Of a DNA stretch of 39,165 nucleotides, positions 10,185-16,152 are shown piece after piece (within the stretch, counting starts at the first letter, position 1; each line of letters opens with the position of its first letter). Where the stretch lies: sequence record SRR2962707_2562. One strand, given 5' to 3'. A program made the translations under genes and the position numbers. A model generated the notes under the pieces. The model saw nothing but the letters and a program-made list of their open reading frames with translations, was not told where the DNA came from and ran no database searches.

Positions 10185-10358
10185 GCCGGATGACCTCTTT
10201 TATCGTTTTGCGAGAGGGTAAGGCTTAAATCAGCAAAAACAAGCTTATGCACTCGCCGGATCCAGGAACATGTGCATAATTCTGCAGCTTTTTGCAGGCG
10301 CGTGCGACTTGAAGAAATCCGCCTCACGTGCCAGCTTATCTGTCAGGAGTTTTTTAGA

Positions 10359-10691
10359 ATGTCCATACGTCGACACCATGATATGGGCGGCCTTGATGCC
10401 GGTCCCGTCGAGCCCAGCGAGCATGATTTCGCCATGTGGGAAAAGCGCGTCGATGCCATCGTCAAAGTGCTGTCGACACCGGACCGCAAGCTGCTCTCAA
10501 CCGATGAATTGCGCCGCGGCATCGAAGAACTCGGCCCCGGTGTCTATGACGACCTCAGCTATTATGAACGCTGGATTTCATCCGCAACCAATCTGCTTCT
10601 TGAGAAAGGCGTATTCACGGTCGACGAACTGGGTACCAAGATGACCGAGGTCGAGGCCCGTTGGACCCGTGAACGCGAGGATGCATCATGA
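10359..10691 (+). CDS. Nitrile hydratase beta N-terminal half / thiocyanate hydrolase ScnB-like subunit
   Basis: HDMGG, WEKR, DELRR.IE.L, Y..LSYYERW, L.EKGV....EL; ATG at 10359 after AGGAG. Confidence 0.85.
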   Translation: MSIRRHHDMGGLDAGPVEPSEHDFAMWEKRVDAIVKVLSTPDRKLLSTDELRRGIEELGPGVYDDLSYYERWISSATNLLLEKGVFTVDELGTKMTEVEARWTREREDAS

Positions 10692-10978
10692 CAACCGGGC
10701 GATACCATCCGGGCGACAGGGTCCGTGTCCGCGATGCCTACCCACCGGGTCACGTACGGACCCCTTATTTCGTCCGCGGCCAGCAGGGCGAGGTTCAGGA
10801 ATACGCCGGCAGCTACCCCAACCCCGAGGAATTAGCCTACGGACGCGACGGCAAGCCGGAGATTCCGCTCTACAGGGTATGCTTCCGTCAATCCGATGTC
10901 TGGGACGGCTATAAAGGTCCGTCAGCGGACACCATCGTCATCGATATCTATGAACACTGGCTGGAGCCCGCGCAATGA
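10688..10978 (+). CDS. Nitrile hydratase beta C-terminal SH3-like half / ScnA-like subunit
   Basis: GDRVRV....P.GH.RTP..VRG..G.V, PE..AYG, LYRV.F....W, D.YEHWLEPA; ATGA overlap with the upstream gene. Confidence 0.85.
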   Translation: MTTGRYHPGDRVRVRDAYPPGHVRTPYFVRGQQGEVQEYAGSYPNPEELAYGRDGKPEIPLYRVCFRQSDVWDGYKGPSADTIVIDIYEHWLEPAQ

Positions 10979-11625
10979 GCCACGATCACGAGCATGGGCA
11001 CGATCATGACGATGATCATCCATACCAGCCGGACATCGAGGATTTCCCTTTTACCGAACGCATGGTGATGACCCAGGCAGTCGCCGAGCTGATCGTCGAA
11101 AAAGGCATTGTCACCGCCGATGAATTGCGCCGTCAGATCGAACTGATGGACAGCCGCGAACCGGGTCTGGGCGCAAAACTTGTGGCCAAGACATGGGTCG
11201 ATTCCGCCTACAAGGAACGCGTGCTGGACGACGTCGGCAGTGCCGCCGCGGAGATCGGTATCGACATCGGTGATATCCCGATCAAGGCCATCGAGAACAC
11301 GGACAAGGTTCATAACGTCGTCGTCTGCACTTTATGTTCCTGTTATCCGCGCATGCTGATCGGGCTGCCACCGGACTGGTACAAGTCCCGCGCTTATCGA
11401 AGCCGTACCGTCAAGGAACCGCGAAAAGTACTCGAAGAGTTCGGCACGCACATCCCGGACGACGTCGAAGTCAGGGTTCATGACTCGACCGCCGATCTCC
11501 GCTATATCGTGCTGCCGTCCCGCCCTGCAGGTACAGAGGGCTGGGATGAGGAAAAACTCGCTAGCCTGATCACCCGCGACAGCATGGTCGGCGTGACCAC
11601 CGCCAAGTCGCCTGACGTTTCTTGA
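10975..11625 (+). CDS. Cobalt-type nitrile hydratase alpha / thiocyanate hydrolase gamma (ScnC-like) subunit
   Basis: Metal-binding VCTLCSCY (Thr indicates Co-type), GAK.VAK.W.D, GLPP.WYKS..YRSR.V.EPR.VL.EFG, DS.A..RY.VLP.RP.GTEGW; ATGA overlap. Confidence 0.93.
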   Translation: MSHDHEHGHDHDDDHPYQPDIEDFPFTERMVMTQAVAELIVEKGIVTADELRRQIELMDSREPGLGAKLVAKTWVDSAYKERVLDDVGSAAAEIGIDIGDIPIKAIENTDKVHNVVVCTLCSCYPRMLIGLPPDWYKSRAYRSRTVKEPRKVLEEFGTHIPDDVEVRVHDSTADLRYIVLPSRPAGTEGWDEEKLASLITRDSMVGVTTAKSPDVS

Positions 11626-11663
11626 ACGCGCTCATATAAGCGCAAAACCAACAAGAGGACCTG

Positions 11664-12845
11664 ATGCCCAACAAGCCTGAATTCCAGTGGGAAGACCCGT
11701 TCCTGTTCGAAACCCAGTTGAGCGAAGAAGAACGTATGGTTCGCGATACAGCTCGCGATTATGCACAGGACAAGCTTATGCCGCGCGTGCTGGAAGCATA
11801 CCGGAACGAGCACTTCGATACGGAAATCATGAAGGAATTCGGCGAACTGGGTCTACTTGGCCCGACGATCCCGGAAGAATACGGCGGCGCCGGCGTGAGC
11901 AATGTCTGTTACGGACTAATTGCCCGGGAAGTGGAGCGCGTCGACAGCGGATACCGCTCGGCACTCAGCGTTCAGTCGTCGCTGGTCATGCACCCGATCA
12001 ATGCCTATGGCAGCGAAGAACAGAAACAGAAATATTTGCCAAAACTGGCAACCGGTGAGCTGATCGGTTGTTTTGGCCTGACCGAGCCCGATTTCGGTTC
12101 CGATCCGGGTGGGATGAAGACCCGTGCCGAGAAGATCGACGGCGGCTACAAATTGAGCGGCTCGAAGATGTGGATCTCTAATGCTCCTGTTGCCGATGTC
12201 TTCATTATCTGGGCCAAGCTCGATGACAAGATCCGCGGCTTCATCCTGGAAAAAGGCATGAAAGGCCTTTCCACCAACAAGATCGAAGGCAAGCTGTCGC
12301 TTCGAGCTTCGATCACCGGTGATATTTCAATGGATGGTGTCGAAGTCGGTGAAGATGCCTTGCTTCCTAATGTATCCGGTCTGTCCGGCCCGTTCGGATG
12401 CCTGAACAAGGCACGCTTCGGGATCGCCTGGGGGGCGCTTGGGGCCGCAGAATTCTGCTGGCACGCTGCCCGCGCCTACACGCTTGAACGCAAACAGTTC
12501 GGACGTCCGCTGGCGAACAACCAGTTGATTCAGAAAAAGCTCGCCGACATGCAGACGGAAATCACCCTCGGCCTGCAAGCCGTGCTGCGCGTCGGACGCC
12601 TGCTTGATGACGACAATTGCCCGCCGGAGAACATTTCGATGATCAAACGGAACTCGACCGGCAAGGCACTCGACATCGCACGCATGTCCCGTGACATGCA
12701 TGGTGGCAACGGGATTGCTGACGAGTATCATGTGATGCGTCATATGCTGAACCTTGAAACGGTCAACACATATGAAGGCACACACGACATTCATGCACTT
12801 ATCCTGGGCCGTGCACAGACCGGACTGCAGGCCTTCACCGGCTGA
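11664..12845 (+). CDS. gcdH: Glutaryl-CoA dehydrogenase
   Basis: [71 protein letters not shown]. Confidence 0.92.
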
Positions 12846-14215: not shown

Positions 14216-15583
14216 TTGAACAAATCGCTGCTGTATCATGCCGCCATCATCACGATGGCGGTGCTGGCGCAGCCATCAGTAGCGCTCGAACGCGGGTTTA
14301 TTGATAAATTCTGCATCTCCCCGCCTCATTCCTCACTATGCCCGCAACTGCCCTTCGATCAGGCGGATTTTTCCAGCGACTTTAACTACATGCTGATCGA
14401 GAAAGGAGCACAGGACCCTTTCGACGTCTTTTCATGGCAGGCAATGGTGGCTCTGAACTGGCCTGCGGATGAATCAGGATTGCCAATGGAATCGGCAATC
14501 GGCTCAAAGCCTGACAAGCCTCGCGTCTGGCAGTCATATGCTAGGCGTGATGCATTATTTCCACCCGATCTGGCCCTGCAATCCTGTGGAAAGTTCCTAG
14601 ATAAGGACACCATTCTGATCAGGGATCTGGTGCAATCGGATGACAATGTCCTTATTGATCAAAACGGCAATCCCGTCGTCTACAGCACGTATGCCAACAA
14701 GGTCGCGGAAAATTTTATTCGCACGAATAATCTGAACACGGCAAAAGGCCAGGACCTGTTTACCGAGAAGCAAGCGATCAGTTTTCCTCAGGGCCGGCTG
14801 ACGAACCTGGAAACCTCAACCCCTGCTGCAGAGCCGTCGTTAACCCTCAAGATGGCCTGGCGGTTGTTGCCTGATAACTTCGCCGAAAACAGTCGATTTT
14901 TTACACGCTCGGGGCTGGTCTTCATTCCCGCCACCCGGACTGGGAACGGCAAACCTGTATGCCACAAAGCAACACTGGGACTAGTCGGAATGCACATAGC
15001 CATGCGCACCCTAAGCGGCCACGGGAATGAATGGATCTGGTCGACTTTTGAACACAGTGATAATGCACCCGAGGCAAGCAACGCTCGGAACGTGAACAGC
15101 ATTTATGCCGATGACCTGTTTCCGGGTGGGTGCGCCATGCCCACGTCAAAGCCAGAAAAACTTTATTCCTTCTATGACCCGGATTGCGAAGCGTGCACCA
15201 CGAACACCCCAGTTTCCAAGACATGGCATTGGTATGAAACGGCACCTCATGCACGTGACATGACAGGTAAAACAATTAAAGGCACCCAAGCCGTAAGGTG
15301 TTGGGAAATCTTTCAGAGCACGGCAGAGGTTAATAAAGCCTGGGCCGAAAAACTGCAGGGAACCGTCTGGGCAAATTACAAACTCATTTCGACACAGTGG
15401 CGGGCGACCGACAAAAGCCCGATTTTTGAGAATGGCGAAGTCCCAAGGTTTCTGACCAATCTGACGCTGGAAAGTTTTCAGCAGACGGCTAATAACGGAA
15501 CGTGTCTTGGATGCCATACAACGGCGCGTACCGCGTCGGGGCTGCCGGCAGATTTCGTCTTCATGTTGCAGCGGGCAAAATAA
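14216..15583 (+). CDS. Secreted uncharacterised protein with a C-terminal CxxCH (putative c-type cytochrome)
   Basis: Signal-peptide-like N-terminus (TTG start after AAGGA), CLGCH about 20 aa from the C-terminus, extra CEAC, Trp-rich blocks (ALNWP, WIWSTFEH, STQW). Confidence 0.7.
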   Translation: MNKSLLYHAAIITMAVLAQPSVALERGFIDKFCISPPHSSLCPQLPFDQADFSSDFNYMLIEKGAQDPFDVFSWQAMVALNWPADESGLPMESAIGSKPDKPRVWQSYARRDALFPPDLALQSCGKFLDKDTILIRDLVQSDDNVLIDQNGNPVVYSTYANKVAENFIRTNNLNTAKGQDLFTEKQAISFPQGRLTNLETSTPAAEPSLTLKMAWRLLPDNFAENSRFFTRSGLVFIPATRTGNGKPVCHKATLGLVGMHIAMRTLSGHGNEWIWSTFEHSDNAPEASNARNVNSIYADDLFPGGCAMPTSKPEKLYSFYDPDCEACTTNTPVSKTWHWYETAPHARDMTGKTIKGTQAVRCWEIFQSTAEVNKAWAEKLQGTVWANYKLISTQWRATDKSPIFENGEVPRFLTNLTLESFQQTANNGTCLGCHTTARTASGLPADFVFMLQRAK

Positions 15584-15594
15584 GGAAAACATAT

Positions 15595-16152
15595 ATGGCA
15601 AAGCTCAACAGGAAATGCCGAACAGGTACGTTGCTCTTCCTCGTCGCGAGCCTGTTTTCTCTCACAGCCGAGGCTGCCGATTTCAGCTGCAACCTGACTT
15701 TTGATCTTGTTGCCGGCAATGCACTTGGTTCCGTCAAACCCGGTGATCTGCTGAAAGGCCGTGTCACGTTTGATACCCGGAGTTCGTGGCAGCAGGACGT
15801 TGAAACCCTGTCCTATAAATCCGAGGGCGATATTGTTGTTACGCATCCAAGCGAGGGGAACGTCCATGCCAAGGTCAGGGTCGTTCATGTCGTCCGCACA
15901 CCCTATATCGCAGATTACATTTCCATTGATGCCCATCTGGCAGAGGGGAATCTTGGTGGGGAAACCCGCTATGAAGACCCAATGCTTATTACCTTTTACG
16001 CGCCACCGTTAACACTCGCGACGTCGGACATTCCGAAAACCTCAGCCGATTGGTCGCAATTGACGAAACGCCGCGTCTTTCAGGTTCATACGCCAGATGC
16101 GATGGCGACTTTCTACGGCGATTTCAATAATCTGGCTGGCGATTGCAGATAG
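15595..16152 (+). CDS. Secreted hypothetical protein
   Basis: ATG at 15595 after AAGGA; basic then hydrophobic signal peptide ending AEA; beta-rich mature part with one Cys near each end. Confidence 0.65.
   Translation: MAKLNRKCRTGTLLFLVASLFSLTAEAADFSCNLTFDLVAGNALGSVKPGDLLKGRVTFDTRSSWQQDVETLSYKSEGDIVVTHPSEGNVHAKVRVVHVVRTPYIADYISIDAHLAEGNLGGETRYEDPMLITFYAPPLTLATSDIPKTSADWSQLTKRRVFQVHTPDAMATFYGDFNNLAGDCR

Follow-up and report, generated by a model that had tools for sequence, protein, structure and literature searches.

A putative three-subunit cobalt nitrile hydratase with an arginine pocket, a member of a common bacterial branch with divided beta subunits

The window analyzed here, a stretch of 39,165 nucleotides from sequence record SRR2962707_2562, carries at positions 10,359 to 11,625 three overlapping genes predicted to encode a nitrile hydratase (NHase) whose beta subunit is divided between two chains. 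The following features were distinguished:

10359..10691, + strand: N-terminal half of the beta subunit (beta-N), 110 amino acids (aa); Pfam PF21006 NHase_beta_N, 67.7 bits
10688..10978, + strand: C-terminal, SH3-like half of the beta subunit (beta-C), 96 aa; Pfam PF02211 NHase_beta_C, 76 bits
10975..11625, + strand: alpha (metal-binding) subunit, 216 aa, with a His/Asp-rich N-terminus; Pfam PF02979 NHase_alpha, 255 bits
10688..10691, + strand: ATGA stop/start overlap of beta-N with beta-C, read from the sequence; no indel in two independent contigs
10975..10978, + strand: ATGA stop/start overlap of beta-C with alpha, read from the sequence; no indel in two independent contigs

All three Pfam matches exceed their cut-offs, and the two small chains cover positions 2-99 and 137-226 of the NCBIfam beta model. 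Each start is preceded, at a distance of 8-10 bases, by a GGAG/GAGG-like site, and that of beta-N is additionally backed by homologues of 110 aa. An earlier reading, made from the letters and their open reading frames (ORFs) and referred to below as the sequence-only reading, had described a beta chain encoded by two ATGA-coupled genes and followed by an alpha gene with the motif VCTLCSCYPR; the ORFs and Pfam matches bear this out. A scan for promoters and terminators gave no signal exceeding that of shuffled sequences. The AlphaFold model of the alpha chain (predicted local distance difference test, pLDDT, 88) resembles solved NHase alpha chains and thiocyanate hydrolase gamma chains (Z 24-27). 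The predicted complex of the subunits scored 0.91 (best control 0.37), with runs agreeing in at least 86% of contacts and a partner pLDDT of at least 89; the mark used for such scores was attained by 51 of 78 solved pairs and by 2 of 108 mismatched pairs. Because complexes of this kind have already been solved, the prediction attests likeness only.

The sequence-only reading had allowed that a sequencing frameshift might have cut one beta gene in two. This possibility was ruled out by three results. Among the relatives, i.e. the best 80 of at least 174 loci confirmed in GTDB genomes, 75 contain three separate ORFs and none has the beta halves fused (of the other five, two begin within a short contig, two have beta-N and alpha joined in one gene, and in one no beta-C is seen). 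Contigs from two runs cover the region with no gap relative to the window (X3, positions 10201-11800, 74 substitutions; X2, positions 10200-11351, 48 substitutions), and beta-N is matched by 1067 stand-alone proteins of 60-193 aa. In two loci of the roseobacter group (L067 and L080) a cupin gene sits between beta-N and beta-C, which identifies the halves as independent genes. Beta-N is joined to alpha in L050 (5308-6600) and L068 (5620-6600), with no beta-C in the locus, and L059 (5658-6633) holds beta-N and alpha, beta-C being absent. In five alphaproteobacterial NHases with a tryptophan pocket (L103, L106, L117, L124 and L126) alpha comes first, then beta-N, encoded in a short open frame, and last beta-C; these loci suggest more than one origin of the beta split.

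The pocket was compared with that of the thiocyanate hydrolase (SCNase, ScnABC) of Thiobacillus thioparus, whose residues were read off alignments to PDB 2dd4 via the annotated scnC locus of Azospirillum. The SCNase gamma chain reads C128-T-L-C131-S-C133-Y-P-R136, and Arg126 of the window alpha subunit, which follows the cobalt-type motif C118-T-L-C121-S-C123, is in register with Arg136 and occupies the position of NHase alpha-Trp116. The SCNase beta segment W85-T-A-E88-E89-R90-R91-R92 aligns with L46-S-T-D49-E50-L51-R52-R53 of beta-N: Leu51 stands at the position of Arg90, Arg52 and Arg53 at those of Arg91 and Arg92, and the DELRR of the window is paired with EERRR of an SCNase-family protein. 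At the same site P. putida NHase (3qxe_B) has D49-E50-F51-R52-H53. The sequence-only reading, which had noted a gamma-type Arg together with a Leu at the beta position, was therefore right about both residues by alignment to the 2dd4 chains, but its DEFR as the canonical NHase state did not hold up, as Phe is not general there (Ser in 14, Gly in 6 and Ala in 6 of 41 non-Arg alphaproteobacterial NHases). The titles of two PDB mutants, R136W (3vyg, Trp at gamma 136) and W116R, show only that the alpha/gamma position has been swapped in both directions between SCNase and NHase.

Conservation was scored over 80 alpha, 78 beta-N and 76 beta-C sequences of the relatives. Invariant positions comprise the metal ligands C118, C121, S122 and C123 and the cobalt-type T119 of alpha (80/80), Arg52, Glu56 and Tyr68 of beta-N (78/78), and His22 and Arg24 of beta-C (76/76), the last corresponding to beta Arg141 of the Fe-type enzyme (aligned to 2ahj_B). 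Position 126 of alpha is Arg in 78 and Lys in 2 sequences, position 51 of beta-N is Leu in 72, Met in 4 and Ala in 2, and position 53 is Arg or Lys in all 78.

With its metal motif, fold and beta catalytic residues all present, the locus can be assigned to the cobalt type of the nitrile hydratase superfamily. The window alpha chain scores higher on the NCBIfam NHase alpha model (TIGR01323; 245.9, cut-off 249.85) than on that of SCNase gamma (TIGR03887; 206.3, cut-off 291.45, true members 357-359), and the two small chains reach 61.7 and 74.6 bits on TIGR03888, with a cut-off of 152.2. The canonical cobalt NHases (P. thermophila 1ire, P. putida 3qxe and Bacillus 1v29) share all catalytic residues and the fold with the window enzyme, but they have a one-piece beta subunit, a Trp following CSCYP and usually an activator, and a long, strongly supported branch lies between the two. 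A canonical two-subunit enzyme was ruled out by the split beta, Arg126, the scores below cut-off and the position in the trees, and a true SCNase by beta Leu51 and a TIGR03887 score about 85 bits under the cut-off. The earlier judgement that the enzyme is neither a canonical NHase nor an SCNase agrees with these scores, both under their NCBIfam cut-offs, and with its separation from the canonical group in three trees.

The sequence-only reading had called the pocket apparently hybrid. The combination is not special to this locus: the Arg/Leu pocket is the normal state of a common bacterial branch, as the counts at positions 126 and 51 given above indicate. In an even sample of 401 Alphaproteobacteria genomes, 137 contained an NHase alpha gene; 90 matches, among those listed, were examined (the top 30 and 60 picked from the lower-scoring ones, 58 others being left out). 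Arg or Lys occupied position 126 in 49 of the 90, 47 with a split beta, 2 with alpha alone in the stretch fetched and none with a one-piece beta, while the 41 non-Arg enzymes comprised 35 with a one-piece and 6 with a split beta. A profile of the window beta-N type reached at least 95 bits in 61 of the 401 genomes (about 15%), including the centre genome and one unpublished genome (G227). Databases label members of the branch as "nitrile hydratase subunit alpha" and two "SH3-like domain-containing proteins". Among the best 80 loci, the nearest relatives belong to uncultured Rhodospirillales and have the same flanking genes as the window. A sub-clade with Gly or Thr at beta position 51 (L161, L182 and L188) carries a gene for a molybdopterin hydroxylase large subunit 26-44 bases after the NHase genes.

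It might be supposed that the Arg and the split simply mark the lineage, with no bearing on function, and that the enzyme is an ordinary NHase with a broad range of neutral substrates, aliphatic or aromatic. Splitting is evidently easy and need not alter function, since two beta pieces are also encoded by 6 of the 41 non-Arg alphaproteobacterial loci and by the Streptomyces canus group described below, and in fused beta-alpha proteins residue 126 is free to vary (Leu 8, Arg 8 and Thr 5 of 31). However, Arg or Lys was found at this position in 80/80 and 49/50 members of the prokaryotic split group, compared with Trp in 39/41 outside it, which points to selection rather than drift, and we consider this explanation very improbable.

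Phylogenetic relationships were examined with an alpha tree (157 rows) and two concatenated trees (75 rows), one of the latter without pocket columns and with a mixture model; all are unrooted and came from quick searches with no bootstrap. The approximately unbiased (AU) test was run on 35 rows after a direct IQ-TREE search, and SCNase was represented by two SCNase-family stand-ins for T. thioparus (351 bits to 2dd4_C). In all three trees a long branch (Shimodaira-Hasegawa-like approximate likelihood ratio test, SH-aLRT, 99, 100 and 100) parts the canonical Trp-pocket enzymes and the S. canus-like group from all others. The window side contains the Arg/Leu enzymes, a plasmid-borne Arg/Lys clade (EEKRR), unnamed fused beta-alpha proteins and, on a long branch, the SCNase stand-ins. 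In both concatenated trees SCNase groups with the Arg/Lys clade (SH-aLRT 99 with and 91 without pocket columns), and in the alpha tree it joins a different row. All three placements of SCNase that were tried passed the AU test: next to the Arg/Lys clade (p 0.58), within the canonical side (0.15) or next to the window group (0.11). The test rejected a clade of the window group with the S. canus-like enzymes (delta log-likelihood 100, p 0.0001). The sequence-only reading had allowed for clustering inside the characterised SCNases with both arginines aligned; the beta Arg is absent, and the placement of SCNase varies among the trees.

As SCNase falls inside the Arg branch in the best trees, the Arg/Leu pocket may be the precursor state of SCNase. 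By the trees, and short of proof, this pocket is at least as likely to be ancestral to SCNase as to be a hybrid; the Arg/Lys and the Arg/Arg (SCNase) states probably came later. In the best-scoring picture, which is not a demonstrated one, beta position 90 changed from Leu through Lys to Arg.

The likeness to SCNase extends to the layout of the chains. ScnABC likewise consists of three chains equivalent to beta-N, beta-C and alpha (window beta-N is the counterpart of SCNase beta and window beta-C that of SCNase alpha), with CTLCSCYPR and the gamma Arg. Three chains are nevertheless not a fixed trait of SCNases, since the beta halves of SCNase-family loci in Azospirillum (L081:5051-5902) and Roseomonas (L082:5032-5883) are fused into one protein of 283 aa. 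The enzyme could be a functional thiocyanate hydrolase outside the named family (SCN- + 2 H2O -> COS + NH3 + OH-), for which Arg126 and Arg53 would suffice in the absence of a counterpart of beta Arg90. The shared layout and gamma Arg, the position of SCNase inside the Arg radiation in the best trees, the retention of a window plus SCNase clade by the AU test and a structural fit of 1.6 A speak for this. On the other side, Leu stands at the position of beta Arg90, and SCNase selectivity reportedly needs both arginines, gamma and beta; this finding, which Yamanaka et al. are said to have made in 2013, counts against the proposal. The window alpha falls 85 bits under the TIGR03887 cut-off, which members exceed with 357-359, and identity to the SCNase-family chains (28-31%, 29-32% and 47%) is no closer than to canonical NHases. 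The window enzyme also lacks the long beta N-terminus and the gamma insertion of SCNase; the TauE/SafE and cobalt-uptake neighbours found by scnC are absent beside its genes, and no activator-like gene occurs with them (five close genomes). A dedicated thiocyanate enzyme is unlikely with the second cation missing, and we regard thiocyanate hydrolysis as quite improbable here.

A better candidate for a thiocyanate hydrolase than the window enzyme is offered by the Arg/Lys clade (CSCYPR, EEKRR; L084-L087, L163 and L193-L195), found on plasmids of Rhizobium, Agrobacterium, Burkholderia, Streptomyces, Microvirga, Azospirillum and Polymorphobacter and nearest the SCNase group in two trees. Its members mostly have the order beta-C, alpha, beta-N and are accompanied by cobalt transporters and often by an aquaporin, and in Burkholderia (L086) a cyanase and a nitrate/cyanate-type ABC transporter lie nearby. 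Compared with the window, enzymes of this clade (M. terrae, Rhizobium and Burkholderia) carry Lys at the beta site, differ in gene order and are 44-57% identical, and the window has no such cobalt-transporter and aquaporin neighbours. The accessible text of two reports (PMC11573777, PMC8278588) describes PnhF of Microvirga flocculans CGMCC 1.16731, credited to Zhao et al. 2020. This three-subunit NHase is encoded on a plasmid, its alpha gene lies between the two beta genes, and its Km (Michaelis constant) in the hydration of flonicamid is 32.9 mM. The Microvirga terrae plasmid locus has the same beta-alpha-beta layout and reads CSCYPR and EEKRR, and on gene layout, by which the clade was assigned in place of the PnhF sequence, PnhF probably carries the same alpha Arg as the window enzyme. 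If so, an Arg pocket is compatible with hydration of a neutral nitrile, and the high Km on flonicamid suggests another natural substrate.

The nearest characterised three-subunit NHase is that of S. canus CGMCC 13662. As far as the accessible text of its description goes, it is encoded in the order AnhD-AnhE-AnhA, has no activator, forms a D2E2A2 assembly and hydrates acetamiprid, thiacloprid and benzonitrile (PMC7329996). It was represented here by stand-ins (L088-L101) from a metagenome scan with its published primer (from the accessible part of PMC7329996); the scan gave 14 loci, 12 with a split beta and 11 with alpha, and their numbering matches the published Glu56, His21, Tyr108, Leu110 and Lys121 (accessible parts of PMC7329996 and PMC13243292). 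The window shares with it the gene order, similar chain sizes, the absence of an activator, Glu56 and His21/22, beta-N corresponding to AnhD and beta-C to AnhE. The stand-ins read NEFRD and CSCYP(L/I), sit with the canonical enzymes in the trees (SH-aLRT 99-100) and are 33-46% identical to the window chains. Close kinship was ruled out by the AU test (p 0.0001) and by the Leu/Phe pocket of the primer-matched stand-ins, so the likeness appears to be one of layout, not of clade or pocket.

Two further groups were compared. The fused protist-type beta-alpha NHases (Monosiga brevicollis type; accessible parts of PMC2603476 and PMC3323583) share with the window the order beta-N, beta-C, His-rich stretch, alpha; they differ in being a single chain with a variable residue 126. 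The unnamed fused proteins, whose eukaryotic origin is suggested by their architecture, lie on the Arg-radiation side of the tree and mostly read D/H-E-L-R-R, with Leu at position 51 in 21/31 and Arg53 in 24/31; residue 126 is distributed as given above. The alpha subunit of Roseobacter CCS2 is described, in the accessible part of PMC3323583, as a top bacterial match to the Monosiga enzyme and its beta as "truncated"; this locus (L036) lies within the radiation of the window. PMC2603476 and PMC10098168 present family trees, and their accessible parts do not discuss pockets. The toyocamycin NHase ToyJKL of Streptomyces rimosus, compared by description only, also has three subunits (accessible text of PMC7329996) and is placed with the S. 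canus enzyme in the accessible part of a review (PMC13243292); if that placement holds, ToyJKL would lie away from the group of the window. No 7-deazapurine cluster was found around the window genes by Pfam and NCBIfam matches over the window.

The genes adjacent to the locus were analyzed across the 80 close loci and 49 wider Arg-type loci (72 cluster representatives for 80 loci and 191 flanking genes for 50 loci). In the window the nearest gene downstream, 38 bases from alpha, is:

11664..12845, + strand: acyl-CoA dehydrogenase (Pfam/NCBIfam)

We take this gene to be glutaryl-CoA dehydrogenase-like. It is possibly co-transcribed with the NHase genes, and is a lineage-specific neighbour rather than part of the system: homologues lie near 10/80 close and 1/49 wider loci, although the searches for acyl-CoA dehydrogenase and glutathione neighbours used single seeds and may miss distant family members. 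Upstream, on the opposite strand, lies a diguanylate cyclase/phosphodiesterase gene. Beyond lineage synteny, no neighbour recurs across the 80 close and 49 wider loci. An amidase is nearby in only 1/80 and 1/49, a cyanase in 0/80 and 0/49, a NicO cobalt transporter in 0/80 and 1/49, and a glutathione S-transferase in 7/80 and 6/49 loci. A second beta-N-like (activator) gene was found in none of five close genomes, save for one paralogous operon. The genome of a close relative holds a second, divergent Arg/Met three-gene operon adjoining a B12-binding radical SAM gene (L102; G003:C1:3169000-3181000).

Three links to a pathway were considered and rejected. Glutathione S-transferase is not enriched (6/49 Arg-type versus 1/11 non-Arg loci), acyl-CoA dehydrogenase, and with it a glutaryl-CoA link, is limited to the lineage of the window (1/49 wider loci), and cyanase occurs in 12/61 genomes with the window beta type versus 16/76 other NHase genomes, i.e. 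with neither association nor exclusion.

On the plasmid p1 of Planktothrix agardhii PCC 7805 (L083:232-6579) an Arg/Leu three-gene enzyme closes a same-strand run of methyltransferase, TauD dioxygenase, NADAR, glutathione S-transferase and asparagine-synthase-like genes; this run looks biosynthetic and could hold a clue to the substrate. Elsewhere in the window (14216-16152) two ORFs of 455 and 216 aa match nothing in Pfam or NCBIfam, and the longer of them has a C-terminal CxxCH motif; the close relatives L001, L002, L004 and L006 lack both here.

These data bear on the proposal that the enzyme is a specialist for one anionic or zwitterionic nitrile, e.g. beta-cyanoalanine, cyanoacetate or 4-cyanobutyrate, or for cyanate. 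Arg126 would bind the negative charge and Leu51 would leave space for a group larger than in thiocyanate. The near-invariance of Arg or Lys at position 126 (80/80) and beta position 53 (78/78) fits this, as does the exchange of the pocket position in the solved mutants R136W (SCNase) and W116R (NHase), and there are scattered suggestive neighbours: acyl-CoA dehydrogenase in the lineage of the window, the asparagine-synthase-like gene in Planktothrix and glutathione genes in some lineages. However, none of these recurs across lineages, the counts for glutathione S-transferase (6/49 vs 1/11) and acyl-CoA dehydrogenase (1/49) are those given above, cyanase is neither linked nor excluded (12/61 vs 16/76 genomes), and PnhF, a probable Arg-pocket enzyme, hydrates the neutral flonicamid according to the accessible text on it. 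An anionic substrate is possible, with no support from gene context, and a specialist of this kind seems rather unlikely.

We favour, with a modest degree of confidence, the view that alpha, beta-N and beta-C form a heterotrimeric non-corrin cobalt nitrile hydratase, one of the radiation of split-beta enzymes with an Arg pocket, which acts, with no activator, as a stand-alone Co(III) hydratase of small polar nitriles. The three chains would assemble as the usual NHase alpha-beta unit, and alpha would bind Co(III) through its three cysteines, C121 being oxidised to the sulfinate and C123 to the sulfenate, as in the family; the oxidised cysteines would be held by beta-N Arg52 and beta-C Arg24. 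The nitrile is expected to bind Co(III) through its nitrogen, the sulfenate to attack the carbon and the amide to be released, as in the accessible account of the family mechanism (PMC7193024). Maturation would proceed with no separate activator, as in the S. canus enzyme. The least certain step is the last: Arg126 in place of Trp would make the pocket entrance polar, so that small polar nitriles might be hydrated (R-CN to R-CONH2). The enzyme may serve as a scavenger or in detoxification, outside any single dedicated pathway, which fits the scattering of the loci among housekeeping genes with no amidase, transporter or regulator. Three-subunit NHases lacking an activator do act on nitriles (accessible text of PMC7329996), which counts in favour of this view. 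So do the intact and invariant catalytic residues, the higher score on the NHase alpha model than on that of SCNase gamma, the lack of a second beta-N-like gene in the five close genomes and of recurrent neighbours at the loci examined, and the hydration of flonicamid by PnhF.

Several points weigh against it. Nitrile activity of the Arg/Leu enzymes is presumed, and in the accessible literature, which includes few subscription journals, no Arg/Leu enzyme with measured activity was found, itself weak evidence of absence. The characterised S. canus enzyme is not close kin (p-AU 0.0001 via its stand-ins), the AU test keeps the window group with SCNase (p-AU 0.11), and the modelled alpha superposes on SCNase gamma to within 1.6 A across 191 residues compared with 2.5-6.9 A for NHases, at similar Z. 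The clade of PnhF was assigned by gene layout rather than by its sequence, and the near-invariance of Arg126, Arg53 and Leu51 is easier to reconcile with a single specific substrate than with loose scavenging.

A broader possibility is that the Arg/Leu split-beta enzymes form a major unrecognised branch with an anionic natural substrate of its own (for instance cyanate, beta-cyanoalanine, a carboxy-nitrile, or thiocyanate at a low rate), that SCNase descends from this branch step by step, beta Leu giving way to Lys and then to Arg, and that the fused protist enzymes are its kin. We consider this unlikely; if true, the cycling of cyanide nitrogen in sea and soil would include a common step, carried out by this branch, that has been overlooked.

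Neither the chemistry nor the arrangement in three chains is new, and nothing sets this copy apart; within a well-known family, the window enzyme belongs to a sub-branch that is common and apparently unstudied. That branch is present in about one in seven of the alphaproteobacterial species sampled, and for few nitrile hydratases has a natural substrate been established, which gives weight to an enzyme that stands for it. The branch bears on whether SCNase evolved by one added cation, and may yield an activator-free biocatalyst for polar nitriles.

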